NCBI GenBank assembly: GCA_000091205.1
Contig: AP006502.2
Length of the DNA stretch: 64,000 nucleotides
From: Cyanidioschyzon merolae
Lineage: Eukaryota
Direction: 5' to 3' (one strand)
Shown piece after piece: positions 350-54,039 of the stretch. How positions within the stretch are numbered: the first letter of the stretch is position 1; the number at the start of each line of letters is the position of its first letter. A model generated the notes under the pieces. That model made no database searches. It was given only the letters and a program-made list of their open reading frames with translations, and was not told the DNA's origin. Made by a program: the position numbers and the translations under genes.

Positions 350-843
350 CTACTCACAGGCGCTTCCCAGCCTTTTTGATTGGCTCCCTGCTATCGTCTT
401 CAGTTTTTCCCTGTGCACTTCCAGCCTGAGAGGCTGTCCCACACATTTGGCTCGTGTCAACTCCGGGTGTGTCGTGTTCAGCACCGCACATATCCTTATA
501 ATGAAGACGGCGTTGGCGTCCCGGTTCTCGAACTCTATGAGTTTCTTGCCGATGCCTGTACGCACCCGTGCGAGGAGTCCTGGAGCTCGCGCCCTGTATA
601 CCATTTGCTGCTCAGTCAGCGCAATGTACTTTTCCATCTCCGAAGTGCTCCGCCGGATTTCCTCCATCGCGACCTTCTGAAGTGCGCAGCCCAGATCATA
701 GTGTATACATACGATGTTCGGATCTCATCTATCCGTACCGTTACGAAATGATGTGCGCACTCCTCGTTCAATCGCGTAGATGGAGCGAGCATGCTCCCTT
801 TTTTGGACGCCCGGCGTCTTGCTCCATCGACGAGAGCATACAA
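350..843 (-). pseudogene. TnpB/Fanzor-like 3' fragment (TSY block + RuvC-III + conserved right end). Left arm of a head-to-head pair.
   Basis: ORFs 616..843 ('RIDEIRTSYVYT') and 350..667 ('IEFENRDANAVFIIRIC...KLKTIAGSQSK'). 3' block 'AAAAAGGCTGGGAAGCGCCTGTGAG' at about 330-360. Confidence 0.6.
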
Positions 844-1254
844 GGAGTGCGCATATCACGTCAACGCGGTACCGATAGACGACTTCCGAACATCGTACGT
901 ATATACTATGATCTGGGCTGCGCACTTCAGAAGGTCGCGATGGAGGAAATCCGGCGGAGCACTTCGGAGATAGAAAAGTACATTGCGCTGACTGAGCAGC
1001 AAATGAAGAGGAGGGCGAAAACTCGGGGACTGCTTGTATTGGTGAGTACAAGCGGCGGCAAGAAACGCATGGAGTTTGTGAACCGAGACTTTAATGCTGT
1101 TATCAATACCAGAAGATGTGCGGTACTGGAGAAGAGACCCCCAGCGTTGACACGAGCCAAATTTGTGGGAGAACCTCTCAAGGTCGAATTCTACGAGAAG
1201 AAGTTGAAAACAGTCGTAGGTGGCCGGTCCAAATAGAAGCGGAGGCGTCCGCAC
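791..1254 (+). pseudogene. TnpB/Fanzor-like 3' fragment. Right arm of the head-to-head pair.
   Basis: 'VPIDDFRTSYVYT' (791..973 frame), then 'EEIRRSTSEIEKYIALTEQQMKRRAKTRGLLVLVSTSGGKKRMEFVNRDFNAVINTRRCAVL' (568..1236 frame). A hairpin GCGGA-GGCG-TCCGC lies 2 nt after the TAG stop (1239-1252). Confidence 0.6.
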
Positions 1255-1925
1255 GTTGGTGTATAGACACGTCGAGTCTACGGCGGACGGACGCGCGCTC
1301 TTCGCGAAGGCCTCCGATCAGCACACGCAATATGCCCTGCGCGTAGGGCTTGCTTGAGGTGCAGACGTCGTTTCGATACGCTCTCGCTTTCGTGAACAGG
1401 CGTTCCTGGTGACGTTCATCTGATAACTAGGGTCTTGCACAATGCACAAACCGGCTTTCCTACACATAGGTTCACTCAGCTTGAACTCGGGCACCAGTGT
1501 GCGCTGGTTAAGGCCGTGTGCGAAAACTCACGCGAGCTGTTGCCGAGTGCTTGTGACGCAGAACCCAGCGTTCCGTGTGGCGCGCACCGGGACGAGCAGC
1601 TCTCACCACTGCAGGCTACGGACTACGAAATCGAGACTTTTCATGGCTTCTGGGCAGGTAGGTATCTTTACGCCGGTCGTCATTGTTGCGCGGGCAATTC
1701 TAGGGAAACAACGCTTCGAGAAAATTCGAGGTAGGGGCATTGCGCTCCACTCGCAGGCTATCACGAACTTTTGTAAGTTTGCAGGTGTCGACAATAAAGT
1801 TCGCCAAGGTCTCATTCGCATGGCGAAAGCGAATGGTAGCAAACTGGGTTTCCTGTCATGAAATGCTCTCTTCATAGCGGGATGAGCGACTCGGCTGCTG
1901 CGCGTGAAGCGCAGCTTGTGGATCC

Positions 1926-2762: not shown

Positions 2763-4425
2763 ACCTGCCGCCTCAATGACGCAGCTGTGCGTCGAGCGTT
2801 CCGGGTCATGCCGCTTGCATCTGCAGCGCCCTGTTCAGCAGAGTGCACTCAGCGGCAGGCCTGAGGGCGTTAGACTCGAATGCACTTCTGCGTCTTTCAT
2901 CGTCAATGCACCGATGCACCTGCCATTTACACAGTTAGAAGAACCTGCACGAGACGCAAGCGAGCGATTACAGTGGGACGCCAGGGCGGCTGGTCTCCAG
3001 CCACGTGAACAAGTTGCACCCACATCGCGGCGAGAAGACGAAGCGAACTATGCCTGGGAGCGACGCTATGAACGTAGCTGGGAGGCCATAGGTGTCAGCG
3101 ATGCTGGCGGGGGTATCTTCCGTCGAGATGCTCTTGATCAACAGCGCCAACGGCACCGTGACTTGGAACGTGTTTTGCAGGACAGCGCTGCTTCCGCTGC
3201 ACGTCGCCGCGTTGGTCGTGCGCTAGGCCTCATTCGCTTTCTGGTGCTGGCGCTGGACCTCTCCGCTGCGGTGCGCTCGCGCTCGCGATCCAGCTTAAGT
3301 AGTAGTAGCCAAGACCTGAAACCTTCCCGCTGGTCGGCAATTCTGTCGGGCGCTCAGTATTTTGTTCAGGACTTTTTCAGCGAGAACGCCGTATCCCAGC
3401 TGGCGATTGTTATCCTCCAGGACGGCATTGCCGCGCAGGTAAGCGAGATGTCGGGTTCTGTGCGTCTGCATATTGATGCGCTGCGCAGTCTTCAGCGAGG
3501 CACAAACAAATTTCTCCACGACGGAGACGGCGGCCAGACCTCTCTCCAGAACTGTCTAGAGCTGGGGCTCCGGATTCATGCATCTGTCCCGAGATTCGGC
3601 ACCAGAGAGATGCTGATTGTCTACGGAGGGTTATCCACATGTGATCCAGGTGATATACATAAGACTATCCAGAACTGTGTCGACGCAAGTATTCGGGTGA
3701 GCGTGATCGGCTTAGGTGCCGAAGTTTACATCTTGCGGGCTACAGCGGAGCGAACACAGGGCACCTATCGTGTACCCATGGATAATGATCACTTCCATCA
3801 GCTGCTGCGACAACAGGTGCCACCACCGCCACCACCGCCTCAGGCTTCACGTTCCACGAAACACCTGGAACCATCCGAGGCACCGTGGACGGCCATGCAG
3901 ATGGTCATGGGCTTCCCCCCGAAACTCGCTAGAGATCGCGTAGTTGTCGCCATCGATACACGAAAGGCGTGCCGCCTCGGATTCGAATGCCCACGATGCC
4001 GGCAATGGCTGTCCGAAGTCCCCGGTAACTGCATCCTTTGCGGGCTCACGCTTACCAGCGTACTCCACCTGGCTCGCTCGTATCATCACATCTTTCCAGC
4101 ACCGCGTTTCGAGGAGCGTGAAGAGCCTTCCTCTTCGCGTGCGAGCGCGCTCATGAGCGATGAGGAAGGTTTCAGCGTATCTCCATCTTCGGTGCCTGAG
4201 CGTATGCCGGATGCGGCCGCACCACCCGTGAAATGGCAATGCAGCGGCTGTTCCCGCACTTTATCGACAAAGGATGATCTGCAGCTGCAGTGCACTGGTA
4301 TATGTCGACAGCTTTTTTGCATTGACTGCGATCAGCTCGTCCACGAGCGATTGCATACGTGCCCGGCCTGTCTGGCGATGAGCCTGAATATGCGGCAGCG
4401 CAGCATCCCGCGAACGATCACCTGA
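2614..4425 (+). CDS. GTF2H2: General transcription factor TFIIH subunit p44 (SSL1/GTF2H2 family: vWA-like domain + C-terminal C4 zinc finger). The true start is probably an internal Met (about 2776 or 2914). The first ~100 codons of the ORF look like 5' read-through.
   Basis: Motifs typical of p44: 'ANYAWERRYERSWEAI', 'REMLIVYGGLSTCDPGDIHKTIQNCVDASIRVSVIGLGAEVYILRATAERTQGTYRV', 'MGFP', 'CPRCRQWL..CILCGLTL..LARSYHHIFP', 'QLFCIDCDQLVHERLHTCPAC'. Recognised from memory of the family; no search run. Confidence 0.85.
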   Translation: MGASKPALLGLARTAFHGVLELELARSSATLNIEPSEIALEHGNTRHKRTPAASMTQLCVERSGSCRLHLQRPVQQSALSGRPEGVRLECTSASFIVNAPMHLPFTQLEEPARDASERLQWDARAAGLQPREQVAPTSRREDEANYAWERRYERSWEAIGVSDAGGGIFRRDALDQQRQRHRDLERVLQDSAASAARRRVGRALGLIRFLVLALDLSAAVRSRSRSSLSSSSQDLKPSRWSAILSGAQYFVQDFFSENAVSQLAIVILQDGIAAQVSEMSGSVRLHIDALRSLQRGTNKFLHDGDGGQTSLQNCLELGLRIHASVPRFGTREMLIVYGGLSTCDPGDIHKTIQNCVDASIRVSVIGLGAEVYILRATAERTQGTYRVPMDNDHFHQLLRQQVPPPPPPPQASRSTKHLEPSEAPWTAMQMVMGFPPKLARDRVVVAIDTRKACRLGFECPRCRQWLSEVPGNCILCGLTLTSVLHLARSYHHIFPAPRFEEREEPSSSRASALMSDEEGFSVSPSSVPERMPDAAAPPVKWQCSGCSRTLSTKDDLQLQCTGICRQLFCIDCDQLVHERLHTCPACLAMSLNMRQRSIPRTIT

Positions 4426-5494: not shown

Positions 5495-5559
5495 TGCACC
5501 ACGACCCCGACCACCACCACCACCTCCACCACCAACACCACCAAGAACAGAGACGAGTG

Positions 5560-6250
5560 ATTATGAAAACCGGAATAGGTGGTATGGATTCGGGTACGAA
5601 CGCGCTATGCGCGCTACGCCCGTGCGTAAGCTTGAATCCGAGTCCTGAGCGACTCGGTTTGCTCCGGTCTCCCCATGATTCATCGGTATTTCCATTCGAT
5701 TGTTTTCGATCTCCAAGTGCGTTGAATCAAATGCTTTTTCGTGGGTTGTAGCGGACGCGTTCGGAGTGCGTTCATTAGAAGAAATGAAAAATCAAAGGGA
5801 AAGGTACGGGCATGGAGGTCGCGGATGCTAGAGGGCGTTGATCGCCTGGTACCGAAAAGAAGAGGAAAAAATCCTCTGCTCGTCGACTGTCGCGCGATGA
5901 AGACCAAGTGACGAAGGCGAAGAAGAAGAGACAGAGAGGGAATCGTTTAGAAAACAGGTTTGTCTGACGGGATGATGGCGAGACTGTATTGGCACAGAGG
6001 GCACGAGTTCCAGCAATCCGTGCATTGGTGAGTTCCACTGGCGTCCATGCATGCAGGGTTCTCGTGAACGAAGACTTGAACGTCCGCATCCGTATCAGAC
6101 GATATCCGGTGCTGAAGAAAAGACCTGAGGAGACGATGCGATCCGAGTTCGTGGAGCAGCTTGTGACGCTTGTATTATGCAGGGAGAAATTGAAACCGAT
6201 AACAGTCTGCAGGTCGAAAAAGGCCGAGAAGCGCCTGCGAGGGGGTATCT
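5560..6250 (+). mobile_element. Short (~0.7 kb) internally deleted derivative of the TnpB-like family. It keeps 5'-end-like blocks and the RuvC-III remnant plus the 3' block.
   Basis: 'ctcgtgaacgaagacttgaacgtccgcatccgtatcagacg' (= FVNRDLNAAIHIRR, frameshifted). 3' block 'gaaattgaaaccgataacagtctgcaggtcgaaaaaggccgagaagcgcctgcgag'. Collinear with the 54040-54700 copy over its whole length. Carries the family-B-like 'ttttcgatct' and 'accggaat' blocks at its 5' side. Confidence 0.5.
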
Positions 6251-7698
6251 ATTTACCAACCACATTCGCACAGCGTTTTCCGTTTTATTCACGATATTCA
6301 TCGAACCTGCTTCACATGTACGGCCTCGAGATTCCAAGTGCACCAAATAGGGTTTACAGCTTCATACCGAGATCCTTGGTTCTCGGTCGTGTTTTTCGAG
6401 TGGCTTCTTCGAATCTCTGCATCTGGAATTCGTTGTGTTACTGGACTCAAGATGATTCGCGAAGCCCGCGAACAACCATTCGTAAAGCAACCGATATCAG
6501 TAAGCCATTGATCCATACAAACCTCCGGTCTGCTAATTTCCAAATGCAGAGCATTCTCGACTCATGCCTGCTTCGAGTTTTCGATGTTTATGGTTCAGGG
6601 CAACTCGTGAGCAAAGCGATTTGCGCCCTGGATTGACGACAAAAGCGGTCGACGTCATCCCGTGATGACTGGTTCACAAACTAGTATAGAGAGGTCACTG
6701 AAATTCTCCCGTCAAATAAACGATTCCGTTCGAAAGATGTATCCGCCTCTGTTTAGAGTATGGGCGCAACCGTTCTCAGATGCAGTTTGATATCTTTCAC
6801 GATGTATACTTCCCGTCGCACTTGTCTCTTGCGCTAGCAAGGAAACAGGTCCTGGACTCAGAATCGTAGTCGTCAGAGTGATCGCTTCCAGTGCAGACTG
6901 CGTCATTGTTTTGCGAGAAGAGCGCCTGGGCGGATTGAAGTTCCTTGCGTTGCTCTCCAGCCCAGATGCCCTTTCGGTGCTTGTTTCATCGTAAACAACA
7001 ACATGTTCCACGAAAACTCTGTCCTGTGGAACAGCGTGCGCTTGCTTACGCACCGGACAGGGTACTCGTCGAGTCGATGGATCGCAAGGAGTGCCTGGAC
7101 TTCAGGTACGGCACCGGGCCGCCGAAGCCGAGAAGGGCATCGACCGGAGCGTTCTGTCCTTGTTAAGAGTATGTACTCCGCGACGAAGCAAGTGTGCATG
7201 GGCCAAAGGTTTGCCTTCAGAAGAGCAGCAGGTATGGTGTACATTTTGGAATACCGGATCATAGCCGTGTCTCTCCGCTGCGAAGGGCGCATTGAACCTG
7301 CATACGCAGAAGATGAAAACGACAGGTAAAGCGTGGATCTCAAATAGCGGCTGCGGATGAAATGCGCCGACAGCTGCCGAATGCAGCTTGATCGGGACCC
7401 TAATGCTGCCGTCTGTATACCTCGGCTGCTTACAACGGCGCTCTACGAAATAGAGAGACCGGGATACTTCAGGCCGGAGATTAGAGAGAGCACAAAAGGA
7501 AGCAGCCATAGGAAACGCCCGCAATAGCTGGTGTTGATGAGACTGCACTGGGACCTAACCTATACTGTGTACGTCCGAGTTGGCGAACCGATTCCATTTC
7601 CGTCTGACATGGGTGTCGCGCATGCTTCACGCCGGCGATGAACATCTCCGACGTGCAATATCAGTACGTTTCAACAGCAGCTCCGAGTCGAGTACACT

Positions 7699-9680: not shown

Positions 9681-10527
9681 GGACGCCGCGCACAAAGGTG
9701 CGCGGATCTCCACCAAATGAGCGCTCGGCATGCAACATGACGCAACTGCCTTGAACGAATGCCTCCACGGATCGATGAAAATCGTGTTATCTCTGCTTGA
9801 CGTGTACCATGGGCGTTGCACTCTGAGCGTTGCGGGATCGATCAAGCGTGTAGCGTTACGGGGAATACGGGTCCAGGGTTCAGATACGCAAAAACGTCTG
9901 GATGAGCGCATCGATTTCATTTCCGATTACCGATGGCAATCTGGTTCAGTACATCGACCATGTACCATAAAAGCAGGGTGCAATCGGGGTAGCGCTTCGT
10001 TGTGTGCGTCACGGCAATTCAATAGCTTTGCCAAGTCTTAGAGAAATATCTTGGGGTTGACGCGTTCGAGTCGCTTCGCCGAAGAGATGCGAGGCACCAC
10101 GGGTGCCGGCGTTAGAGCGCACCGCTTCGCCTGCTCCGAAACGGACCCGCATCGTCGCCTGGCCGTATTGAGGATGCCAATTCCCGGTACTGATGATACG
10201 GTCGAAGATGCTGGGGATTGCGTGACGGGCGCCTGCTACCTGTCGCATGTGCGGCCAAGTCTCTGTTGCACGCGGAGGCACCGCAGGAGCAGAGAGACTT
10301 CTCCAGTTCTGGAACTCGTCGCCCAGAGCGATGAACGCGCCTGCGAGGCTGCCGAATACCCAGTCCAATTTCGACTTGCGGAACGTACGCTGACTCCTCT
10401 TATTGTATGGATGCCGTTTCGTGAACAGCGGTTTATGCCAGCCGAGCGTTAGATTGGAATGGGATACTGCACTGCACGCGCTGGCCCTGCCTTTCGATTT
10501 TTTTCCCCGGCATTTTCCTAGATATAC

Positions 10528-11810
10528 GGTCTAGACACTCAAAGTGCAACAATCAGGGCTTGGGAATTCATGCGCAGTTTCCGGATTCCCGGTCCGCGTT
10601 ACTGCGTGCCACTTTCGACGCGTTGCCCCTGTAACTCGATACGTCACCGGGATCGAGATGCTTCTCGACGCCGCCAAACAAAGGTTTGTAAAATAGCCGA
10701 TTTTATGAACCAATTTGTAGGCACAAGCCTCTACCGCTATCGCGTTCCTTGTGTATAGCATGCGCAAATCATGCATGCTTCATGTTTTCGATCTTTCTGT
10801 TTCAAGGCAACCCGTGGGCACAGCAATGCTCGCCACTGGACTGGCGCGGCATGGAGCCCGACGTCGCTCCTTGACGACGTGTTCACACGCTCACGCCCAA
10901 GCCTCATCGTGCTTCTCGTATCAAATGATCGAATCCTTTCGAAAGACAAATCCTTGTGTCCCTGTGGTCATCCGCGAGACAGGGAATTCGACAGCTGCAT
11001 CGTACGTTACACGGGGATTCGCGCCCAGATGCACTCGCCTCTTCTGGTTGCATGGAATAAAGTCCCTGACTATAGTCGTCGCAGCGATCGCCTCTGGTGC
11101 AGACTGGATCACCGCTTCGCTGTAGAACAGCGTGGACGGATCGAAATCACTCGACTGGTTCTCCTATGGGCGTTATCATTCGCTCGATTGTTCCACCAAG
11201 GCCAATATCGCATTCCACGAATCCCTTCTCAAACGGGACAGCGTATGCTTGCTTTTGCACCATACAGCGCACTCGCAAAGGGAATCGCCCAGAAGAAGCC
11301 CGTCATCGTACGGTACGGCATTGGGCATGCAAACAAAGAATGGATTCGACGAGCGCCTTCTACGTCAGTCGCGGACATGCATCGAGCGCTGAAGTAAGCC
11401 TTCGCATGCCACCGAGCGGCGCTCGGTCCAGGAAGAGCTGCGGCAGACGCATATGCGAGCGTCTGATCAGAGTCCAGTCTCAGCGCTGCGGAAGACACAC
11501 CGAAGCTGTGTACACAGAAGACGAACATGGCGAACGACGTGCGGACCGCAACTTGCCCCTACGCGTGGGACGCGTTACCAAGAGCGGGAAGCGGCGAAGT
11601 CGGAACTTGAACGTTGCCATCGACATCTCTCGACTGCTTACACGGGAGCTTCAAGGACAAGACAGACCGGCATATGTACATTCGGAGCTAAGAGAGCGGC
11701 AAAGGAAGCAGTCGCAGAAAGAGCGTTCAAAAGCGAATGTCCATGACAGAGAGAAAACCGCGATTTTAACCTGTACGTTCGTGTCTGGGGACCTATTCTC
11801 TTCCATTACG
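10528..11810 (+). mobile_element. Family B dispersed element (about 1.25 kb), copy B1. Degenerate ORFs.
   Basis: 5' blocks 'ttcgacgcgttgcccctg...caccgggatcgagatgc' and 'ttttcgatctttctgtttcaaggcaacccgtggg'. Internal 'AQKKPVIVRYGIG'. 3' tail 'aaaggaagcagtcgcagaaag...ctattctcttccattacgac'. Confidence 0.6.
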
Positions 11811-13228: not shown

Positions 13229-13834
13229 ACCTGGATGATGACGTATAGCTGCGGAAGCGTTCGTAGGTGCAGCGTCATCTCCTGTACAGCGATCGTCGAG
13301 GGCGTGCGCGCTCCACCAGAGCGCGCTGTAAGCGGCGCTTCACTCGAGACGGTCGATTCGGGCGATGAGCGGCGCTTGCGCGTTCCACTGGTGCCCGCGA
13401 CAGATCGCAGACGGCTTTCTTTTTCGAGCTTGTGTCGTATCCGGACTACACATTTGAGGTGCTGGCTATGATAAGATTGCTCTTGATGACGCAAGTAATC
13501 GCAGGCATCCTGTTTGTGCTCATGGGTACACTGCAGCTCGTAGGCTGGGTTCGGGCGAAGCATCCGCAGTATCTGAAGGAATTCAGAACGCTATATCCCC
13601 GGGCGAGGAAATGCATGTTTCCTTTCATTTGATGAAAGCACGGAAGGCTCAGGAAATTTGTTTGCACGCCAATGGGCACATCCTGACTTGGATGTGCGAG
13701 GCCGGTGCGCATGTGACTTTTCGTCACTTTTGGATGATGGTGGATTCGATGATCGTTGCAACCGGTGCATCGTGGTCGTGCCGATGCTGCCGCCGCACAT
13801 GCCGTGGAGCGTGCTCAGAGTCGTGATGATGCTC

Positions 13835-14045
13835 GATATTCGAGCTAGAAAAGCGCACTCGGATTGTTTTCCCAGATTACCGTAGCGGCGACTTGTCATC
13901 ATCCTGCATCTGAACGTTTTGGGCATCGTCATGATGCTCGATATTCAATCGACAAAAGTGCTCTCGGATTGTTTTCCCAGAATACCGCAGCGGCGACTTG
14001 TCATCATCCTGAATCTGAATGTTTCGGGTACGTCTTAAGTTTACG
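13835..14045. repeat. Tandem duplication, 2 x about 105 bp, about 90% identical.
   Basis: 'tgatgctcgatattc...ggattgttttcccaga(t/a)taccg(t/c)agcggcgacttgtcatcatcctg(c/a)atctgaa(c/t)gtt' appears twice. Confidence 0.8.
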
Positions 14046-14246
14046 CACTAGGAAACCGTGGCTTCCCGTGCGGCTTTGTCAAGCACTGTTCGCGACCAGC
14101 ATGCCATCACCAGAGCACCTGGCGCCGGCCGGAGCCTTCAGCTTCTTTTACCGATCGTTTGATAGCGTCAGTCAAGATGGATCGGTTCTGGACTTCAGCT
14201 CCATCACGAGTGTTTTAGACAAAACGCCATCAGTATCAGATGATGT

Positions 14247-14440
14247 ATGGTGATGGAGGTGCGACCTGCGGAGCTGGTGCGATCCAACTTTGGGCGGCAG
14301 CCTGCGAGGCTAGAGATATGCAAGGAGAGGCTGAAACCGATCGCAGTCGGCAGGTCAAAACAGGCGGGGAGGCGTCTGCAATTGGGTATCCCTTTACCCT
14401 ACATGCGCATAGGACATTTCTCGGTTTCATTGAGTATAAA
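14247..14440 (+). pseudogene. TnpB-like 3'-terminal remnant (tail only).
   Basis: 'RLEICKERLKPIAVGRSKQAGRRLQLG' with 'gaggctgaaaccgatcgcagtcggcaggtcaaaacaggcggggaggcgtctgcaa'. Abuts an inverted family-B copy. Confidence 0.45.
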
Positions 14441-14469: not shown

Positions 14470-15700
14470 GAGTATGCACTTAATAAAGTGCCTCCTCCAA
14501 ACCTCATCAACACCAGCCTTCTAAGGCATTTCTTTGACCGCTTCTTTTACGCTTTCGTTTTTGCGGCTTTCAATACGCCAGTCTCTCCTTTTACTCTAGC
14601 TTCTTCTTCAACTGACACAGGATGCGGATCGCCGTACTCAAGTCATGATTTCGCTGCATGGGTTGTTGCCGATGTAGTCCAGGCACAGGCGCAAGTTGCG
14701 ATCTACGCTTCGCTTGCCGTTTTCATCTACTGCATATATGGTATGCGTGCGCTCTTCGCGGCTGTGACGCTTGACTGTGATCAGGTGTTCCCGTGCGCCA
14801 ACAACATCTCCACTTCCGATAACCGCTCTATCGCACGTGAACGCTCGCCTCATCGCTCGGTATATGCTCTTGACGGGTAGAGAGGTTCCCGTCGGTACCC
14901 GCCTCCGTTTCCGCGCTCTTTGTCGTACCCTGCGATCACGGGCTTCTTCGAGACGATTCTTGTGACAAGTACCTTGTACGCGGCACACGCACATACAGGC
15001 TGTTCTATTCGACAGAGAATTCGTGGAATACGAGATTGTCCATAACAAAACAAGAATCGGAAGGAATACCTAGGCTGAAGAACAAGCCGAGAAATCTCGT
15101 TCAGTCAACGTTCCCTGTATACAAAAAAGTAACGGACTCTTTCCTTGAAGCGATCGTTGCGATGACGCGGACCCATGTTCCAGGCTGTATTCCTTGCTGA
15201 CAGAAGAGACGAGAGTATCTCAGAAAATGTCACGTGCGACGCATCGCGCTGCTGTCGAATGAGGTTTCGTCAATGGCCACGAAGGCAAAATAGTGTGTTT
15301 TTCGATTCGAATGTATGATTTGACTTGAGCGATTCAATCAAGTTTCGGGGTTAGCTCGTGAACCAATCGGCAAGAGTCGACGTCATGGCACATCGCTCAT
15401 CGCCATTTCCGTGTCGCGAATTGCTGCGCCCATGAGTCGCAAGGCAAAAAGGTCTAAAACATGAAAAACGCGTGCTTTGTGCACACTACAGCTGAAGAAA
15501 CGAGAAGCGTGGGGCTCGCACGCATGAATTTTCTCATGTTACCGATTTTTTTCCGAACCACAGTTCGATCATTCCGCGAATGACCTCGTTTCCAATGATG
15601 TTTCGAATTCCAGCGGCAAAGCGTCGAAGGAGCTACGCCCAAAACCACGATCGAGTATCCACAACCCACGTCCGACTTGGTACGTACATGTTGCTTGCAA
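14470..15700 (-). mobile_element. Family B copy B8, inverted. It directly abuts the TnpB-like remnant at 14247-14440.
   Basis: Minus-strand ORFs 14638..15048 and 14850..15053 are homologous to B1 ORFs ('KKPVIAGYD', 'HTIYAVDENGKRSVDRNL'). The reverse-complement of the block-A motif lies at about 15600-15640. Confidence 0.5.
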
Positions 15701-16137
15701 CAGAAATCTAAAGCCTGCACACCTAAAAATCTCGGATAATATCGCTAGCCCCGAACAGAGTAACCTGTTCAATGCTCTATGCTGATCTGATCCAATTTTT
15801 TCGTAAGCAGCAACGCGCCTCCCAAAATCGCCACCTTGTCACATGGCGCGGGATGCGCTGTACACAGAGGCGCACGACACCGCCTGTCCTCTGTCACGGG
15901 GCGCCGCACGAACAACAGCGCCTGCGCTTCGGCGCCGAAGGCGATGGACCGCCGCCCGCCCGACGCGAGATCGCAGGGCCGTCTACGTACGGGCCAAAAT
16001 GGGGTAACCGGAAAATCGATCGCACCGTGTTTCCTCTACACCATGTTCCTCTCCGTGTATCCAACCTGGCTTTGTGTTATCTCGGAAGAATCAGCAGAAA
16101 AGACACTTGAAACTGAGGATCATTTTTTTAAGAAGGA

Positions 16138-19666: not shown

Positions 19667-19896
19667 CCTGGGAAGCGCCTTGGTGCGCGAAGCGGCAACA
19701 AATGGTACTCGAAGCCGTCAACAAGTCTCAGAGGATGCTCGGGCACCTCCTCAACAAATAGTGACGAGGTAACGATCAAAAGTCGGGTGTGGCGGGTATG
19801 CAATCGCTATGATGCTGCACAGCACGCGTCAAAGAACCAGCTGTCGAAAAACCGAAACCTACCCGACGACGATACGCGTTACTGCTCTCTTTATGA

Positions 19897-20070
19897 GCAC
19901 TTGTCACCGGTGAGCGCTGGCACCAAAGTCCTCTGCACAGCGCGCTCCTCACAGCACCAGCTTGTCGCGTTCTATCCTCTAGCACAAGAGCTTCCCGTCC
20001 GAGCACTTGTCACCGGCGAGCGCTGGCACCAAAGTCCTCTGCCCAGCGCGCTCCTCACAGCACCAGCTTA
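19897..20070. repeat. Direct repeat, 2 x about 66 bp separated by ~43 bp. Lies in the bidirectional region between the AGC kinase (-) and the DUG-fusion gene (+).
   Basis: 'cacttgtcaccgg(t/c)gagcgctggcaccaaagtcctctgc(a/c)cagcgcgctcctcacagcaccagctt' occurs twice. Confidence 0.8.
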
Positions 20071-20528
20071 CCGCGTACCGTATACCGTAGGTGTCGTGCT
20101 TTGACGTCAGTACGCTCAGCAGCTCCCGATTTTATCAGGTCCGGTCTGATCCAGGAAAACGAAAAGACTCTCCACCGACACGTGAAAAGGACGCTATGTC
20201 CAAAGCACCGGGTAACGCTCGCGGACGTCGAACACAAGAACGCCACCGGCCTGAGAGGGCGAGTTTCGAACCCGCACCACCACCGTTTGGCTTCGCCCCC
20301 TGGAGCGCAGCGCTCAACGGTGACGTCGCACCGCAGTCGGTATGCAGGGGTCGCGTCTTTACGCAGGGGACTTCGTTTAGCGACACTTGGAAAGGTACAC
20401 TGCTACACAGTGAAGAACCGTGCTTGCACTTGTGGCAGCGAGTCTCGTGACTGTGACCAGAAACTCTATCATCGAGCGATTTTGCATTAGCTGCGCACCG
20501 CTGCCTCTCAACCGCACCGTACTTCAAC

Positions 20529-27518: not shown

Positions 27519-27693
27519 CGCAGGCATCGACCTCAGAATCCTCATCGCAGCACCAGTGCAGCATCAACGCTCGCGAGCGACGACTTGCGCGCATGCTGCG
27601 GCGCGTGCACTCGTGCGATAATCGTGTGAGGTCAACACGAAGCACTTAACAGCGCGCCCCGTTGCTGCTTAGAGACTCGTTTCCGAACCCTTT

Positions 27694-28955
27694 TGTAGAT
27701 GTACAGCGTCCGCATTCAGCGTGATGCAACAAAGGTGTATGGATTCATGTGCAGTTTTAGGGTTCTGGATCTCGTTTTCTGGGTGACGCCTTCGACGCCC
27801 TGCCGCTGGAATTCGTTACGCCACCGGAATCGAGAAATCTGGGACGCTCTTGAACAACGGTTCTTACATTAAGTGATATTTTTTTATCCAATGCATACAT
27901 GGATGCAACCACTCGTCTTCTATGCTTACGCGTAGTGCGCTAACATTACGCATGTTCCAAGTTTACGGTCTCTTTGTTTCAAGGCAACTCGTGGACGCAG
28001 TAATACGAACCGCTGGATTGGCGATAACGCAAAGCCGACATCAACCCGTGACGAATGATTCACGAACTGGTGCCGAAAGTTTGCCGCGCTGCTCACGTCA
28101 AATAATCGGTTCCTTTCGAAAGTCAATTCGCCTCGCTTTGTAACCGCTGATGAGCTTGCATGCGATACCGGCATGATCGCTGTCGGGTGATGTGCTCCTA
28201 GCGTCTACCGTCTCTGTTGCTTGTATGAAAAGAAGGGTCATGGACACGGTCTTGGTACGCCGCAGCGATCGTTCCCAGTGCAGCGTTTGTCACCGCTTTT
28301 GCGCGAAGGAAGCGACAGCGGATCGACATTTCTCGGCTTGTTCTATGGCCTGGATTTTGCTTTCACCGATTGTTTCATTATGGACAACGTCGCGTGCCGC
28401 AAATCTTTGACCGAATGGAAAAGCGTTCGCTTGCGCGTGCACCGGAGAGCGTGCTTGCTGAAGCCACTGTTCAGAAAGAGCCTGTGATCATAGTGTACGG
28501 TGCCGGACTCGAAAACGGACGGGGACATCAACACTAGCCTTCTGTGCCCGTCAAAGGCATGTAGAGTCCGATGGTGCAAGCGTCCACGAGCCACAGACCG
28601 ACGTTTAGAATTGGCGTTGTGGTGGACGTAGACGAGCGTTTGATCATTGTCAAGTGCCGCTGCTGCGAATCGCGTACTGAGGCAGTACGTGTATGAAATG
28701 AAAAAGGCAAACGGAGCGTAAATCGGATTTCCCGCCTGTGCATCGAATGCGCCAACAACTACCGGAAGTAGCGAAATCGAGCCTTGAACCCTGCCACCAA
28801 CACCCTTCTACTAATGACCACAGAGGCCGGGGGAACAGACGCTACCAGTGCATTGAAAGCGCGAGATAAACAAGAGGAACAAGAATCAATCGCAGAGCAA
28901 GCCCGAAAAGACTCGTGTTGATGATCGTGTGAAGAGCCACAAACTTTAGTGCTTA
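27694..28955 (+). mobile_element. Family B copy B2.
   Basis: 5' 'tttgtagatgtacagcgtccgcattcag'. Blocks 'ttcgacgccctgccgctggaattcgttacgccaccggaatcgaga' and 'gtttcaaggcaactcgtggacgc'. 3' 'aaactttagtgctt...cttgttctattctggtatcaca'. Confidence 0.6.
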
Positions 28956-30501: not shown

Positions 30502-30727
30502 GTTGCTGGTTCGAAACTATATTCGCGATCGGCCTATGTTTGACAGTAAAGCTGTGCTCGATACGTCGGCACGTTATCGCAAGCACGCAGCAACCGCGAA
30601 AACGTGTCTCGCCCTGCGTCGAGCACTCGTCGGACCCGTGTCGCGTTCGAGCGCTGCAATGCGAGTCCGGTTGCTGCCGAGCGATTTTCTTCTCTAACTT
30701 CTTGAAAGGGGTAAAGCCCCAGCATTC

Positions 30728-31975
30728 CGGGTACAGCACAGAGGGGTTTCCGGACTCATATGTCGTTGTAGGATTCGCGGTTATTCATACAGAGTGGTGC
30801 CTTAGACGCGTTGACACTGGATTCCGGTACGTCACCGAGAGCAAGAGGTTTCACGACGCTCTTGGGCACGGGTTCGTAGGATAATCGGTACCATGGCACA
30901 GTTCATTCGCAGAAAGCACCGCTCTTCTCCTTTCCTACCGTCTATCACGCTCAAATCACGCATGGCCCAAGTTTTCGATCTTTATGTTTCGTGGCAACTC
31001 GTGGGCGCAACAATGCACGCCGCTGCATGGACGACGAAAAAACTCCACATCGTCCGTTGACGACGTTATCACAAGCGTATGTCGAGAGCTTACAGAACTT
31101 GTCGCGTCAAATAATGGATTCATTCGAAAGACGAATCCTCTACTTTCATGGTTATCTCCGATACGACATTCGCCGCACCGTGGTATCTCCAACGGGTTGA
31201 AGCTCGCGGAGGCTGGTGCCTCATCTGTTTGCATGGAATCGGATCTTGAATTCGGAATGGAGCCATCGCAACGATCGCTTCCAATGGAGACTGCCGCAGC
31301 GCTTTGCGAGAAGGAACCGAAGAAAGACTGAATTCTCTCGTATTGATCTCTAGCACGGGGGTTAATCCCTGGGCGTGCCTCATCACGAACAGCATTGTAT
31401 TCCAAAACAACCGCTCTCGGTTGGGAAATCGTGGATTGCCTTGCACAGCGAGCAGCGTACTCGCCAAGCGTACTGCCCAGAACAGGCCTGTGATCGTCGG
31501 GAACGGCACCGAGAGCCGGATCCGGAAGAGGATCGTGCGGAGCCCTCAGTACCAGTTATGGGCACGTAATGAGCACCGAAAATGGTGCTCTTGTGCAGGG
31601 CGGCTGCGCTGAGCGCAAGCGGCGAGCTGCGCGTTCGAAAACACCTGACCACAGCGAAGTAGCAGCTCGTCTTACGGGTCACCGAGTCTGTTTCCAGGAG
31701 TGACGAGAATGGCAAGCGAACCGAAAACCGCGACTGCTGTCTGTGCATGAAATCGAGCGACAGCATTCTTGAGCTGCGAAACTGAGACTTTCACGCTGCT
31801 ATGAACAGTGCTCGAATGCGGACAACGGGGCTGGATGGAAAGGAGAGACTGGCGTAGTGTAAGCGAGAGACAAGCGTGTAGAAAAGGAAGCAGCCGCAGA
31901 TAACCCCTGCAAAAAAGCCGATGTTGAAGACAGCAGGAACATGGACCGAATCATTAGTGTCTGCGCCCGAGTTAG
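30728..31975 (+). mobile_element. Family B copy B3.
   Basis: 'ttttcgatctttatgtttcgtggcaactcgtgggcgc', 'AQNRPVIVGNGTE' (ORF 31304..31612). Tail '...aaaaggaagcagccgcagataacc...gaccagttctatttattctgacgagg'. Confidence 0.6.
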
Positions 31976-32642: not shown

Positions 32643-32868
32643 GTTACGACGGATGCAGCGTGGACCCGAACACGCGTGCGCTCCGAACGTACACCTGATG
32701 CAAGTTATAGCGTGCTTCCGCCTCGGCGGTCGGTGCATCGCGGAACTACGACGGATGCAGCGTGGACCCGAACACGCGTGCGCTCCGAACGTACACCTGA
32801 TGCAAGTTATAGCGTGCTTCCGCCTCGGCGGTCGGTGCATCGCGGAACTCGGTGTAGTGCTCTGTGGC
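32643..32868. repeat. Perfect tandem duplication, 2 x about 113 bp.
   Basis: 'ctacgacggatgcagcgtggacccgaacacgcgtgcgctccgaacgtacacctgatgcaagttatagcgtgcttccgcctcggcggtcggtgcatcgcggaa' occurs twice in succession. Confidence 0.9.
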
Positions 32869-34809: not shown

Positions 34810-35317
34810 GCGCTCAGTAACTACAACGAGTTGCGTGGTAGTGCGACCTTAAACTCGACTGGAGTGCGCTGGCACCACGTGCTCTAGAAATGCACGTTTC
34901 AGCCACAGAGACGCGTAGTGACGCCTCAGTAGCGCGTACTAAAACTCCGCGGCAGCTTGAGCCTATGCGTAGCCAAGAGAGTCGGCGTGAGCAGCTTTCT
35001 CGATGAAACCGCTCCTGCAAGATCGTGCTCGATTTTGATTGCAGTGCAAAGCAACCCTTTGAAAAGTTAGGGAATAAGTCGGAGTCTGTGGTGTTGCACT
35101 CCCCAGAACTAAGCGTTATCTCTTGGTGGTCCAGCGGGTAGGCAGCGTGATTAACGCATCGGCGCACGCCTCTGTAGGCTGGACCAAAGGCTCCGCGCCG
35201 CGGACGTCGCCGTGCTGCACAGATCCCGCTGATCGATCTGCTTGATGACGCTCGATCGCTACGAGGCCGTGCGTGATGCGGTTTTTTCGGATATTGCCTT
35301 GTAGGATCGATATTTCC

Positions 35318-35870
35318 GACCTGGAAGTATTACTGCTTGCATAAGTACAGCTTAAATATGATTTCTGTATAGATCCTATCATTGTAAAAGACGGATGCAT
35401 CTGACCTGAAAGCATGACTGCTTGCATAAATACAGCGTATACATGATTTCGTTATAAATCCTATCATTGTACAAGACAAATGCATCTGACCTGGAATCAT
35501 GACTGCTTGCATAAATACAGCGTATACATGATTTCGTTGTAAATCCTGTTATTGTACAAGACCAATGCATCTGACCTGGAATCATGACTGCTTGCATAAA
35601 TACAGCTTAAATATGATTTCTGTATAGATCCTATCATTGTAAAAGATTGATGCATCTGACCTGAAAGCATGACTGCTTGCATAAATACAGCGTATACATG
35701 ATTTCGTTGTAAATCCTGTTATTGTACAAGACCAATGCATCTGACCTGGAATCATGACTGCTTGCATAAATACAGCTCAAATATGATTTCTGTATAGATC
35801 CTATCATTGTAAAAGATTGATGCATCTGACCTGAAAGCATGACTGCTTGCATAAATACTGCTCATATTGC
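35318..35870. repeat. AT-rich tandem repeat, about 6.5 units of ~85 bp. Two alternating variants give a ~170-bp higher-order period. Lies in the divergent AKR/ASS intergenic region.
   Basis: Units such as 'gactgcttgcataaatacagcgtatacatgatttcgttgtaaatcctgttattgtacaagaccaatgcatctgacctggaatcat' repeat head-to-tail. Overlapping identical small ORFs in the track (MQAVM...) reflect the periodicity. Confidence 0.9.
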
Positions 35871-37418: not shown

Positions 37419-38059
37419 GCGCCAGCGAAAGAGACAAGGCACGAATTGCAGTAGAGACTGCTGCTAGCTCCATGGCGTGGCCTTGCTCGCGGAGTGAATT
37501 TAAAGTACCGTTTAAAATTGTTGAATTCTCAAACAGTTCTCGCTGTGTTGGCTGGGAAAGGACGCTGGTGACACCAGGGTGTCGCCCAGATGCTCATCCC
37601 CAAGAAAGCAACCTTTACAGTCGATGATCGTGTGCGAGCATCGCCTCGAATGCCGAGTTTTAACAGCGGGTCACGTCGAACGCTACCCGCAGCTGTGATG
37701 CGTATGACTTGCGCCCTCCTAGGCTGTGGTACTGCATTCTGTGAGGCCCGTTGTGGCGGTTAGAGTTAAGTCGTGTCCATGATTACCACCGGAAACATTG
37801 CTTCCGAGCAAACGCCAATTCGAGTCGATCAACCAGATGCAGGTCGGTCAGAGTGCTTCGAGTACCTGCTTTCGAGCGTCCTTCGAACAGGATTTGCATC
37901 AGCACCTGTGTTCCATATCAGAGGAAACGAATGGCCTTCCGAGGTCGTCACTCGTTGTTCTACCGTTGCTAGTCCGGCGGTAGGTAAACACGGGACCAGG
38001 AACTGCTCGCCCTGTTCCCGCTTTTCGATTTGCTTACGAACCTTTTTAAAATCGCAGTC

Positions 38060-39305
38060 TCAATATTCGAAGCACATCGGTAAGGGTTCTCGTGTTCGTA
38101 TGAAGGCTAAGAATTGTCGGTCGTTTTCTCATAGTGACTTTTTAGACGCTTTGTCGCTGGAACTCGCAAATTCACCGGAATCGAGATGCTTCGCGACGCA
38201 AACCGACACGTTTCCTAAACTAACCGATAACATGATCCGATTCATGAGTACAAGCCGCAAAGCTTCTCTGTTCCCGAAATTTAGCACCTTCGAATCACGT
38301 AAAGTTTTGGATCACCCTGTTTCAAGGTCAAAGGTGGCGCGCAGCAAAACGCGCTGCTCTCTCGACGAGGAGACAAGCTGAACGTCGTCTTTTGACGACT
38401 TTTTCGGAAGCCCGTGCTGAAAGTCCGATGAACTTTCACGTAAAAAAATCGATTGCTTTTGAAACGCAATTCTTCTGCTCTTTTTTGCGATCAATGGTAC
38501 AGTCTTCGACCACGGTACGATACCTCCGGCAGGGGGGGTACGCTCCCAGAGACTCGCGTCTCAACTGTTTGCGTGGAAAATGCTCCTGGATTCGGACTCT
38601 AGTCAATGCGACGACCGTGTCCAATGGAAATAGCGCCACTTGTTTGCATGAAGCGATCCTAGACAATTCGGAAACTCTCGGCTTCTTTTCCAGCGTGACT
38701 TTTCTTACCGATACTTGTAGCACCAGGGAAAACGACGGGTTCCACTGGTCCTTTTTCGAAAGGAGCGACGTTTGCGTACGTCCGCAGCGGACAGCGTACG
38801 CACAGAGGAAATCGCTTTGACCAAGCCCGTGATCGTTGGGTACTTCGCCGGCTACCGCAACCGGGTGAGGCATCCAAGGTAGCCTTGTGTGCCGGTCAAG
38901 GGCTTGTGCCAAACGATGAGGCACCATTCGCGCGTCACCGGTCGGTTTTCGGAGCAAGAGGCGTGCTGTACATGTGGAAGCACTCGACCACAGCCATATA
39001 TGTCAGCGCTGTGACGGGCGCACCAGGACTGTTTACAAAGAAGATTCGTAGATCGCAACATCCGTCTGTCCATGGGATGCGTAAATACCAGTGGGAAGCC
39101 GCAAAACGGGAATTGAACGCTTCCATGAACATCATCGGACTGCTGAACATGAAACTTGAGAAAGAGGAGAGATGGACGTATTGCAAGCCGGAGACGACAG
39201 AGAGGAGCAGAAAGCAGTCCCAGAAGAGCCCGCAAAGTCCAGTGCTGATAATAGCGGGAACAGGTCCGAGCTTCAGTGCGCACGCGAGTGATCGCGGACC
39301 TGTTC
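38060..39305 (+). mobile_element. Family B copy B4.
   Basis: 'ttagacgctttgtcgctggaactcgcaaattcaccggaatcgagatgcttcgcgacgc', 'ctgtttcaaggtcaaaggtgg'. Tail 'gagcagaaagcagtcccagaagagcccgcaaagtcc...ggacctgttctattctattctgacatgg'. Confidence 0.6.
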
Positions 39306-41878: not shown

Positions 41879-43546
41879 GTGGGCTTAAGCAGTAACATGC
41901 GCAACCCACAGGCTTGCGCTTCCGCAGAGGCGACAACGGATCACTCTGTGCCGTTCGGTGGCATTTCATCGCGAAAGGAAGCGCGAATGTACGGTGCCTG
42001 CCGGTGGCACTGCTGCGTCGCTCACGCTGCGATTGTATTTCGAAGAATGTTTTCGAATTTCGGGATCGTGGCGCAGATATATTCGATTTCGGCTTCTGTT
42101 GTAGGGTGCCAGCGTGGCTATCCCATAGAGTCCTTCAGGGTGCGACGAACGATGACGGCTACTGGGGAGAGCCAGTTTGTCGCGGTATCTGAACTCGCTC
42201 AAGGCGATAATCCTGTTGTACACGTTGAATCACTTTGTTTGCGATGCGAGAAACAGGGCGAAACGCGGCTTCTCCTTGTGCGCATACCGCACTTTCGGGA
42301 AGTACTTGTGTCCTCTTTCAACTGTCCAAACTGTGGCTGGCGAGACAGCGGCGTTCAAGAAACTGCGGAAATAGGTGAAACTGGGGTTTGCTACGAACTG
42401 GCGGTACGGACGCCAGCTGATCTTCAACGAACAGTAGTGTTGTCGGCGTACGCTTCGGTGCGCGTGCCCGAACTGGAGCTCGAGGCACCAGCTAGCGGCC
42501 GTGGGCGTTTTACCACTGTCGAGGGCCTGGTTACCCAGATGGTAGACGATCTTAGAAGTTATGTGAACGAGTGTGACAAGTTAAGCGAGGACGAAGCAGG
42601 GAAACTCCGCGTCGTCGTTTCCAGACTTGAAGCGTTCGCCGTCGACGGCGAGGGTTTCCACATCATCGTCGACGACCCCGCAGGCAACTCGTTTTTGGAT
42701 ATTCTGGACGCAGATGGCAAACCCTGTAGCTCTGGGACTATGAGGCGGTACCCACGGACGCATGAAATGAATGTTCGTTTGGGTCTCAGTGTGGATGAGG
42801 ATGCTGAACTCAATGGACGGACCTCGCGCACCTTCGATCAAGCCAGCGCGGACGGCCAGCTCACGGCAGTGGACGATGCAGCAAGTACACGCGACGCCGC
42901 ACCTGATTTCTCTCGAAGAGAAGTGCTTCGAATCTCCACAGAATGTCCCGCTTGCGGAAAAATGGGAGAAAATCGCATTCACGAAACCAACATTCCACAT
43001 TTCCGCGATATTCTACTCATTGCATTTACCTGTGAGCACTGTGGGTTCAAATCTACAGAAGTGAAACCGAGCGGCCATTGTGCTGAAAAGGGTCAACGGA
43101 TCACGCTGCATGTGCAGAGTCGCGAGGACTTTTCGCGAGATCTCATCAAGTCAGACACGGCGCGACTGGTGATACCGCAAGTGCATCTCGAATTAGAGCC
43201 GGGCACACTGGGCTCCAAATTCACCACCGTAGAGGGCATTGTGCGAGACGCACGGGAGGCTCTCGGGGACTTGCGTCGATTTGTACAGAGCGAGGACTTC
43301 AAGCCCGACGAGGTTCGACAGCAGCAGGAGCGCTTCCAAGATTTTCTTCGTCAGCTTGATATGCTGCTCGACGCACCGAATCCTCAGTTCGATCTCATTT
43401 TAGACGATCCGCTCGGTAATAGTTACATTCAGAATCCTTGTGCTCCGAATGTTGATCCCCAGCTAGAAATCGAGGAGTATGAACGCACACCGGAGATGAA
43501 CGAGGCACTCGGGATTGTTGCTCCTGCCGAAGGAGCCGGCCGCTAA
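41879..43546 (+). CDS. ZPR1: Zinc-finger protein ZPR1 (two ZPR1-type zinc-finger/A-domain modules). The true start is likely the internal Met 'MTATGESQ' (~42150).
   Basis: 'ESLCLRCEKQGETRLLLVRIPHFREVLVSSFNCPNCGWRDSGVQ' and a second module 'STECPACGKMGENRIHETNIPHFRDILLIAFTCEHCGFKSTEVK'. 'TTVEGLV' and 'IIVDDPAGNSF' blocks. Confidence 0.9.
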   Translation: MGLSSNMRNPQACASAEATTDHSVPFGGISSRKEARMYGACRWHCCVAHAAIVFRRMFSNFGIVAQIYSISASVVGCQRGYPIESFRVRRTMTATGESQFVAVSELAQGDNPVVHVESLCLRCEKQGETRLLLVRIPHFREVLVSSFNCPNCGWRDSGVQETAEIGETGVCYELAVRTPADLQRTVVLSAYASVRVPELELEAPASGRGRFTTVEGLVTQMVDDLRSYVNECDKLSEDEAGKLRVVVSRLEAFAVDGEGFHIIVDDPAGNSFLDILDADGKPCSSGTMRRYPRTHEMNVRLGLSVDEDAELNGRTSRTFDQASADGQLTAVDDAASTRDAAPDFSRREVLRISTECPACGKMGENRIHETNIPHFRDILLIAFTCEHCGFKSTEVKPSGHCAEKGQRITLHVQSREDFSRDLIKSDTARLVIPQVHLELEPGTLGSKFTTVEGIVRDAREALGDLRRFVQSEDFKPDEVRQQQERFQDFLRQLDMLLDAPNPQFDLILDDPLGNSYIQNPCAPNVDPQLEIEEYERTPEMNEALGIVAPAEGAGR

Positions 43547-43837
43547 TGCACCCAGAGGTTTTGGTTTTCGATGGAGCATCGCAGGACATGGATGATCGTC
43601 TGAATCGAACAGTGCCTTTTGCGCCATCGAGAAGAATCATGGAACGCAGCCCACACGACCTTGATATCATAGAGTTCCCGCGCCCGATCAGTTCTCTGAA
43701 ATTGCCGCTGCCGCCGGGTTATGCGCGCGGCAGCAGTCAGCCGTTTTATTTGGTATACACGAAGGTGGGTCGATCCGGTGAGGCGCGAGCGCTTCCATCC
43801 AGCGTGTAGAGGCCTGGAGCTCGATACATGGATTGGA

Positions 43838-44985
43838 TGTCATATATAGAACTGGGGCAAACCTAGCTGCACCGCTGTCGGAATGAAGCGGAAAAGGCCT
43901 GTACAACAAGTGCGCAAACTAGTGTTCTGCACTGTGTTCCAATTATCATTTAAACCAGTCTTTACGGTTTGTGTTCCTTGGCTGGTTCCTTTTACACGCT
44001 CTCATCTCGGGGTTTAAAAATGATGGCATGCCCTTTCACATCAGATTCGTTGTCAATATTCGGAGGATAATGAAGGCAGCACTCAAGTCCCGATTTCCCT
44101 GTTTCCGGCAATTGCAAACGCGTTTCGTGTAAAGGCAAATGTTGCGATCTACGACTCTTTCTCGTATACAGCCTTGGTGCATCCTTTACAGCAGCGACAC
44201 TATGGCATGGTCAGGTGTTCCCGTATGTCCTTCAAACCTATTCCTCCGATCGCCGCCCGGTGGCGCGACAAACGCTTAGTTCGTCGCCCGGTACATGCGC
44301 TTAATGGACACAGCGGCTACCAAGATGCTCTCCTCTGTTTAAGCGCCCAGTGCCGCAGCCCACGATCACGGGCTCTTTCGGGGCCACGCACTCGGCGCGT
44401 ACGCTGTCCGCTACACACGCAAGCACACGTTGCTCCATTCGATAGAGATTTTCTGGAACGCGCTGCTGTCCATCATAGAGCAATGCTCGGAAGCGGAAAT
44501 CCACGCTGCATATCAAGTCGAGAAACGTCGTTCTGTCCAGGCTTGGCTCTGACAGAGCTCTGACGCAGTTGCCACCGAGAGCGATCGCTGCGGTGACGCA
44601 AGCCCCAGTACGAGACACGTTTCCACGCAAACGGAAGAGATGGAAGCCTCTGGCTGCATGCCCGGCAGGATGCATCAAGCTGATGTGGAATGCGGTCTCA
44701 CCGTGGGCCACACTGAGAATAGGATTTGCGTTTCGAACGGCTCGAGTATTTGAAGCGACAGTCTCAGTGACCTTGGGGCATGAGCTTGTGAACCAGTGGT
44801 TCAGAGACGACGTCGGGTATTTCTCCTGCTCAATACGACGCTGGCGATTGCTGGGCGCTCGAGCTGCCTTGAAACCGGAGATCGAAACGTGAAAAAAGCG
44901 TGATTGTAGCATGCTACGCGGGAAGAGAGAAGAAAAGCAGCGGCTTGGACGTGCGCATTGGACAATGATGCCAGATGGCTTAAAA
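43838..44985 (-). mobile_element. Family B copy B5 (inverted), with an intact 203/224-aa ORF (44301..44912).
   Basis: The ORF is near-identical to those at 59828..60502 and 62545..63219. The reverse-complement terminus 'tgtcatatatagaactgg' is at about 43838. Confidence 0.6.
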
Positions 44986-45245
44986 ACGTTTATATGAACT
45001 CGCCGAGAATCGCCTTGATTCCAGTGACGGGACGCTTTCCAGCTGCAAAGAATCGAAACAGCGACTTTTAAAAGATAACCGATAATTAAAAAGTTCCAAA
45101 CGGATGTGTAAACCCCTCATGTTGGAATTCGAATATCGAAAGTGCATATCTGACATCTCGTTCAGAAAAGCATCGAGAGACACCACCGCCTCTCGAAAGT
45201 CGAACGACGTCGCCGGCAGTGTACAGTAGTGGCAAGTGACCCGCC

Positions 45246-49140: not shown

Positions 49141-49202
49141 ATACAACGCCAACTGGGCATACGGTTGTATCTCGGGGACGGAGACTTTCGGCGCAGATTC
49201 CC

Positions 49203-53992: not shown

Positions 53993-54039
53993 TCGCAGTG
54001 CTTTCGATAGGATATTGCTGGCCGAAAAAGCGCCTCCGT

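Follow-up and report, generated by a model that had tools for sequence, protein, structure and literature searches.

Among the Fanzor1 systems described so far, the closest to the locus considered here is CMe-1A, the sole Fanzor1 family reported for the red alga Cyanidioschyzon merolae, with ~150 old copies that are ~80% identical to a ~3-kb consensus (Bao and Jurka 2013, Mobile DNA 4:12; PMC3627910). CMe-1A has no obvious terminal inverted repeats or target-site duplications, its class is unknown, and the sole non-autonomous relative described, TE-N2_CMe, comprises the 5' 635 bp (PMC3627910). Elsewhere, the Fanzor1 elements CRe-1/2/3 of Chlamydomonas are Helitron2-like, with ‘one-ended transposition’ and duplications of 7-19 bp, and Mariner/IS630-type transposons carrying a Fanzor1 passenger have also been described (PMC3627910). 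Characterised Fanzor1/TnpB guide RNA maps to the right end of the element, combining a ~120-nt scaffold with ~20 nt of flank (bioRxiv 10.1101/2023.08.09.552727).

Here, we analyse a 64,000-nt stretch of nuclear DNA from C. merolae 10D (the window), in which two intergenic segments, copies A and B, had been read from the sequence alone as short, internally deleted derivatives of a TnpB-like element that keep both element ends and are tied to a second repeat, family B. We conclude that A and B are quite probably dead relics of one internally deleted derivative of the CMe-1A Fanzor1 transposon family. The genes of the window are closely spaced and have few introns, several repeat families occupy its intergenic DNA, and hot-spring metagenomes contain contigs near-identical to it. 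The features discussed below are located in Table 1.

Table 1. Location of the features discussed (window positions unless an L-numbered contig is named)
Feature	Position	Strand	Remarks
Short copy A, whole unit	5687-6297	+	~610 bp; collinear with B; profile mapping
A, 5' segment	5687-5978	+	~125 nt upstream/5'UTR, start codon 5812, first ~55 codons
Deletion junction GAGAC, TGTATTGGCAC	5975-5990	+	common to A, B, S3 and S4
A, 3' segment	5985-6297	+	last ~85 codons and ~60-nt non-coding tail
Short copy B, whole unit	54105-54701	+	~600 bp; collinear with A; profile mapping
B, 5' segment	54105-54390	+	ATG at 54224/54230
B, 3' segment	54395-54701	+	carries FVNRDLNAAIHIRR; stop near 54642
Short copy S3	L034 5047-4506 (also L032, L036)		same junction as A/B; profile screen
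Short copy S4	L069 7079-7509 (also L078)		same junction as A/B; profile screen
Recurrences of the A/B 3' block	356-827 (-), 820-1286 (+), 14225-14438 (+), 45181-45729 (-), 57663-58066 (-)		window blastn/profile
E1/F1, two 3'-end fragments head to head	827-356 and 820-1286	- and +	profile mapping
D14, 5'-truncated 3'-end fragment	14225-14438	+	tail type as in A/B
G45, near-full-length parent-type Fanzor1 element	45181-48573	-	pseudogene; alignment, translation
C57, composite relic	57663-59000	-	decayed DDE_3 module, Fanzor 5'UTR, different internal deletion, Fanzor 3' end
Module M loci	57663-59000 (-); L034 4990-5953; L069 6167-7138; L019 13-598
Family-B copies 1-5	6280-7544, 10447-11760, 14489-15791 (-), 27618-28945, 30648-31945
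Family-B copies 6-9	37980-39271, 43928-45188 (-), 59513-60812, 62231-63531
Family-B copy directly after the 3' end of A	6280-7544	+	starts at family-B profile position 42; nhmmer E 6e-223
Family-B copy directly after G45	43928-45188	-	starts at family-B profile position 43; pairwise alignment, nhmmer
Cysteine synthase	55838-57007	-	exact match to C. merolae 10D BAM83278.1
Phosphomannomutase	61338-62123	-	exact match to C. merolae 10D BAM83279.1

The parents of A and B belong to the CMe-1A Fanzor1 family and are matched by its published description. Besides coming from the same organism, both the parent-type copy in the window, G45, and the metagenome copies fit that description (PMC3627910). 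G45 is 83% identical to elements on contigs L005 and L006, and its conceptual protein has 88 homologues, nearly all from the same kind of metagenome. The copy is dead, carrying 3 stops/frameshift, and its RuvC-I motif reads GAGPGNTN, with a D -> G change in the first motif. Single-sequence PDB and Pfam searches with the window Fanzor pseudogene gave no match and a profile was needed; one built from 12 homologues matches the PDB Fanzor1 chains 9cf0 (Parasitella, E 5.3e-13), 8gkh (Spizellomyces, E 1.5e-7) and 9cer (Guillardia, E 1.3e-4). Pfam searches of the family yielded a sub-threshold PF07282 match only, for the distant homologues P0085 and P0087. The split RuvC motifs of the family, D (G.DPG), E (DEFRTS) and D (NRD.NAA.NI), show little or no variation in the alignment, and are visible in homologues P0001, P0050 and others. 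Additionally, the Fanzor ORF in the window contains 75-bp tandem repeats (46160-46462) that encode acidic repeats, the number of which differs between elements, giving a gap at profile positions ~2137-2357.

Copies A and B align with each other in blastn over 5731-6297 and 54149-54701 (67.8% identity over 572 columns, E 5e-47), and a profile made from the pair widens the homology to 5687-6297 and 54105-54701. The collinearity recognized in the sequence-only reading is real within these limits. It had been claimed for the whole length of two longer segments, the outer parts of which (5560-5686 and 54040-54104) are unlike each other and unlike full-length elements. The strings quoted for the segments, ‘AAAAATC(A/C)AAGGGAAAGGTA(C/T)GG’ and the block ‘GAGT.C.AGCAAT.C.TGCA.TGGTG.GTTCC’, are indeed present, as is FVNRDLNAAIHIRR, in one frame of copy B. 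The similarity between the copies ends sharply at both sides, the flanks of A are unrelated to those of B, and the 3' block (the last ~250 nt) is found at five more window sites. Just upstream of A lies a (CCA)n-like microsatellite-type run (5505-5545), and just upstream of B a (CCTG)n run of the same type (53915-53990).

When mapped on a 3440-position element profile of full-length copies, A covers positions 815-995 (window 5689-5869) and 3073-3324 (5990-6238), and B covers positions 815-1036 and 3085-3334. Both are thus collinear with the parent on either side of a single gap. The 5' piece comprises ~125 nt of upstream/5'UTR sequence followed by ~55 N-terminal codons; it runs straight into a 3' piece made up of the final ~85-100 codons and a ~60-nt tail, and ~2 kb of the full-length element is absent between the two. 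The 5' segment of A aligns with the 5' regions of G45 and of the L005 and L006 elements, and its codons translate into a basic sequence with an NLS-like KKRKK stretch; the N-terminal part of B reads ‘..FEDPGGSVSP..’ and matches residues 16-40 of homologue P0017. At the other end, BLASTP aligns the C-terminal part of A to P0006 (residues 334-413, E 4e-14), with the RuvC-III ‘NRD.NAA’ motif decayed to VNEDLNVRI, also given as VNEDLNVRIRIRR. Neither copy holds a complete catalytic domain; the last motif region alone is retained, and RuvC-I and RuvC-II fall in the deleted part. The junction is in frame in A, in which the whole reading frame contains two stops. The native sequence of the 3' breakpoint is visible in C57, and comparison of the full-length 5' sequence with C57 suggests that the junction may sit in a short GA(A/G)AC-type microhomology.

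The same short form exists beyond the window. Profile screening, which covered 0.73 Mb of sequence, detected two further copies, S3 and S4, and the junction is free of indels when these are aligned with A and B; a protein-guided scan of metagenome contigs, restricted to the best 80 C-terminal matches (79 loci), disfavours short forms. One identical junction is therefore found at four loci, and the earlier view that internally deleted derivatives of the TnpB-like (Fanzor1) element occur at more than one place is borne out. One deletion derivative was copied to at least four loci (A, B, S3 and S4). S4 has a further ~75-nt loss, and S3 and S4 share ~900 nt of upstream sequence (module M, see below) with each other; these two may be one event copied within a larger unit, giving three clearly independent insertions, not four. 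Moreover, over their first ~78 nt A and B look like the main-type 5' region, but in S3 and S4 this place is taken by module M, so that the history of the short form is not a simple tree. Pairwise identity among the short forms is 62-72%, and they are no closer mutually than to other old fragments of the same tail type, which fits an old burst followed by neutral decay.

Other rearranged copies accompany these. L016 (2658-4428) and L017 (2658-4482) carry an internally deleted Fanzor copy without profile positions ~1063-1762; with its canonical 5' start (position 671) and its 3' end both preserved, it is a true both-ends derivative, unlike A and B. Head-to-head pairs of Fanzor 3' fragments such as E1/F1 also occur on L068 (2372-3428 and 3432-4495), L087, L088, L073, L083 and L032/L034, and these palindromic pairs are centred at differing element positions. 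Furthermore, solo copies of the ~100-nt Fanzor 3' tail (L015 1144-1255, L026 830-947, L040 761-862, L064 796-872) lie ~700 nt upstream of full-length elements, and the sequence that comes after them also comes after the L019 fragment, a layout that points to a conserved tandem or nested arrangement.

The claim that the short copies keep both element ends holds for the 3' end and fails for the 5' end, at which about 150-160 nt of conserved sequence are missing. This conserved 5' block (~160 nt, 5'-profile positions ~100-258) is found in all copies of a 22-copy full-length alignment; on the profile from that alignment, A begins at position 259 and B at 270, corresponding to element-profile position 815. 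A maximum-sensitivity search recovered neither the ~160-nt block nor any upstream module in A or B, and a hidden 5' terminus seen by eye in their upstream flanks was unsupported by the 22-copy profile at maximum sensitivity. At the opposite side, the tail homology of A to B, C57 and D14 stops at 6296-6297, and that of B at 54701. Every A-type 3' end finishes in ...GATA, and the GATA may be part of the element itself. Family-wide, the 3' end is constant and the 5' end variable: at least four distinct 5' heads are seen among full-length copies, the 3' end persists in many 5'-truncated fragments located within contigs, and no clearly 3'-truncated fragment was seen inside a profile-screened contig. 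This suggests a 3'-end-anchored copying process for the family.

Signs of a target site are faint. A candidate target-site duplication, weakly supported, is the exact 8-mer ATTCATCG at 5678-5685 (+), with a second copy at 6296-6303; both lie within 3 nt of the homology boundaries of A. Four 8-mer repeat families, ATTCATCG included, occur in the same 700 nt, and B has a degenerate counterpart only. No clear terminal inverted repeats were found for the short copies. Both copies are fixed, in the sense that every strain contig examined with the exact query neighbour protein carries them; because no empty site or insertion polymorphism was found at either copy, their mobility is inferred only from the unrelated flanks. 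The syntenic locus of Cyanidiococcus (L007) offers no alignable intergenic DNA. A long duplication between the two ends of A was considered and proved not significant. A retro-copy of mRNA was also rejected, as the copies start ~70 nt upstream of a TATATAA-like box (recognised by eye) and lack a poly(A) tail.

Some Fanzor copies are preceded by a module, termed M, of ~900 nt. In C57, S3, S4 and L019 it immediately precedes the Fanzor 5'UTR and is oriented alike; neither A nor B has it. Translated conceptually, the module matches Pfam DDE_3 (PF13358; E 3.9e-8, 33.7 bits, cut-off 28.6). C57 ends in the Fanzor 3' end from element-profile position 2977 onwards, and the internal deletion in C57 and L019 differs from the A/B junction. 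Our searches for an intact partner transposase found none, the one homologue of module M being 142 aa long, and no convincing inverted repeat was visible by eye between the module M 5' end and the 3' end. Judging from this arrangement of decayed sequences, at least part of the Fanzor family may once have travelled behind an IS630/mariner-type transposase gene, and the adjacency of DDE_3 and Fanzor hints at an IS630/mariner-type carrier for the C. merolae Fanzor1 elements and is a possible clue to their class.

Nine copies of family B, an interspersed repeat of 1.3 kb, take up ~18% of the 64-kb window; the 21-kb syntenic Cyanidiococcus locus yielded none. Identity among old copies is ~62-65%, whereas three young copies share a ~780-bp core at 98-100% identity with edges of only ~80%, a pattern that suggests gene conversion or recent spread. 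The core contains a 224-aa ORF with no Pfam match. The sequence-only reading had linked the TnpB-like family to family B through shared blocks at the 5' sides of A and B, a link that we correct here. In a proper local alignment, family B matches the 5' sides of A and B no better than chance (z ~0 against shuffles), and the similarity is not significant. Profiles applied in both directions (24 family-B copies, 27 Fanzor 5' regions) gave no match at E<=10, and in searches with the 24-copy and 22-copy profiles, again in both directions, the reversed control scored higher; a 9-copy profile of the family-B head likewise had no significant similarity to the A and B 5' sides. The best family-B head match upstream of A (5624-5668, E 0.25-0.5) did not recur when the 24-copy profile was used, and the insertion of A into a family-B copy, proposed from that match, was rejected accordingly. 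The 12-mer TTTTCGATCTCC, one of the alleged 5' blocks, is exact only in A; its one-mismatch matches in family B are internal (59852, 62569, 44877), and similar ones also occur inside Fanzor coding sequence on the opposite strand. The other block, AAACCGGAATAGG, has no family-B match.

The real contact between Fanzor copies and family B is on the 3' side, where a complete family-B copy abuts both A and G45. These two Fanzor copies belong to different tail subfamilies, and both are joined at their 3' ends to family-B position 42/43; no family-B junction was found at the other ~60 non-redundant Fanzor 3' ends. A family-B head was not found upstream of A or G45, so neither is a simple insertion into family B.

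How the short form came to lie at several loci, and why it was kept, could be explained in more than one way. A and B could derive from DNA-level duplication of one relic (segmental, or through ectopic recombination or gene conversion) rather than from transposition. In its favour, S3 and S4 sit inside a longer unit (at least 1.3 kb) that both have in common, the family has reticulate features, its head-to-head palindromes are suggestive of break repair, and neither terminal inverted repeats nor convincing target-site duplications were found. However, the similarity of A and B stops sharply and their flanks are unrelated, though flanks 68% identical would be detectable, and on the 3' side the two copies stop where the family as a whole ends; we regard duplication as unlikely. 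Repeated origin of the same deletion in different full-length copies, at a microhomology hotspot, would be consistent with the location of the junction in a short GA(A/G)AC-like repeat and with the other internal deletions that did occur (C57, L019). It is at odds with four copies that are collinear base for base across the junction and have a minority tail type in common, and seems extremely improbable. Internally deleted P elements make repressors, and by analogy the in-frame fusion in the short form might speculatively have encoded a regulatory mini-protein of ~165 aa, with a basic N-terminus and the Fanzor C-terminus, explaining its spread. The in-frame junction of A, with two stops only, would suit such a protein, but all four copies are now disrupted, leaving this explanation with next to no likelihood.

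A further explanation concerns RNA. The short copies might have been retained as guide-RNA (omega/reRNA) genes, the 3' ~310 nt acting as scaffold with the flank as guide, in trans with Fanzor from intact copies. The retained 3' region of A and B would include any guide-RNA scaffold, the 3' end is present in every fragment and in each of the four short forms, and the right end is where characterised Fanzor1/TnpB guide RNA lies (bioRxiv 10.1101/2023.08.09.552727). Main-type 3' ends also contain hairpin-capable palindromes, the specified structure pairing in 74.6% of cells compared with 34-52% for slid partners. Yet covariation in that structure is no better than in shuffles, RNAalifold on 42 main-type 3' ends returned no consensus structure, the covariation term for six A-type tails is +1.67 (positive being unfavourable), and Rfam has no match in the window. 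The 3' regions of the short forms are only 62-72% identical, and it is there that S4 lost 75 nt. Strain variation points the same way: B carries 18.5 variable sites per kb among eleven strain sequences, in which neighbouring intergenic DNA has 11-22 per kb and flanking coding sequence 1.5-2.6 per kb, so that B evolves as unconstrained sequence, at the variability of neutral intergenic DNA. In four strain contigs, B is 99.4-99.9% identical in blastn, and in most other strain contigs it was detected by profile. The present RNA function entertained in the earlier reading is thus unsupported, and retention as guide-RNA genes is very unlikely. A broader form of the idea holds that the short form spread or was kept because the Fanzor right end is functional, either as a trans-acting guide-RNA module or through flank-directed, RNA-guided homing into a repeated target. 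Homing is raised by A and G45, which share the join to family-B position 42/43 despite their different subfamilies, and the chance that this idea is right appears very slim.

We therefore favour the reading of A and B as relics of one amplified deletion derivative. A single ~2-kb deletion, possibly arising at microhomology, would have removed codons ~60-690, including the RuvC-I and RuvC-II motifs, and left an in-frame fusion. The derivative would later have been copied, presumably by transposition, to at least four loci. Fanzor is not a transposase, and the derivative encodes no nuclease in any case; its spread would therefore have been that of a non-autonomous passenger, carried by whichever machinery moves the family. 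The moving process would keep the 3' end and tolerate variable 5' ends, consistent with a 3'-anchored mechanism, and all short copies would then have decayed neutrally, as may be seen in the stops or frameshifts that both A and B carry.

Compared with the known systems, A and B are ordinary decayed relics of a known transposon family. They differ from what has been described for CMe-1A in that the ~0.6-kb internally deleted form is not described there and in that A and B are without the 5' module of TE-N2_CMe (PMC3627910). The constant 3' end, the many 5'-truncated or internally deleted copies and the hairpin-capable palindrome near the 3' terminus recall CRe-1/2/3, and the weak candidate 8-bp duplication of A falls within the 7-19 bp range; by contrast, no Helitron ends, Rep/helicase partner or TTTT target were found here. 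The decayed DDE_3 module directly upstream of the Fanzor 5'UTR in C57, S3, S4 and L019 resembles the Mariner/IS630-type transposons with a Fanzor1 passenger, whereas the module is missing from A and B, an intact transposase was not found, and neither terminal inverted repeats nor a clear TA duplication were established. With Ds (from Ac) and KP (from P), the short form has in common one internal deletion, later amplification and the loss of coding capacity; those derivatives keep both functional termini, whereas A and B keep the parent's 3' terminus only. What is gained is the annotation of two relics in the intergenic DNA of a model red alga, with little at stake for wider biology. New for CMe-1A are the amplified deletion derivative, the invariant 3' and variable 5' ends, and the presence of some copies behind a decayed DDE_3 module.

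Some further observations concern the neighbouring DNA. The metagenome contig L001 (ENA k141_259616), compared with window 43500-57100, has ZPR1 and a family-B copy abutting the cysteine synthase-patatin block, and its block order is inverted relative to both the window and Cyanidiococcus; the contig is either a chimeric assembly or the product of an inversion between family-B copies lying in opposite orientations. The window has further tandem repeats at 35315-35867, 13821-14028, 32645-32849 and 19895-20076, their unit types including an 85-bp unit (several copies), a 103-bp unit (two copies) and a 76-bp pair, and the two copies of the 103-bp unit at 32645 are 100% identical.
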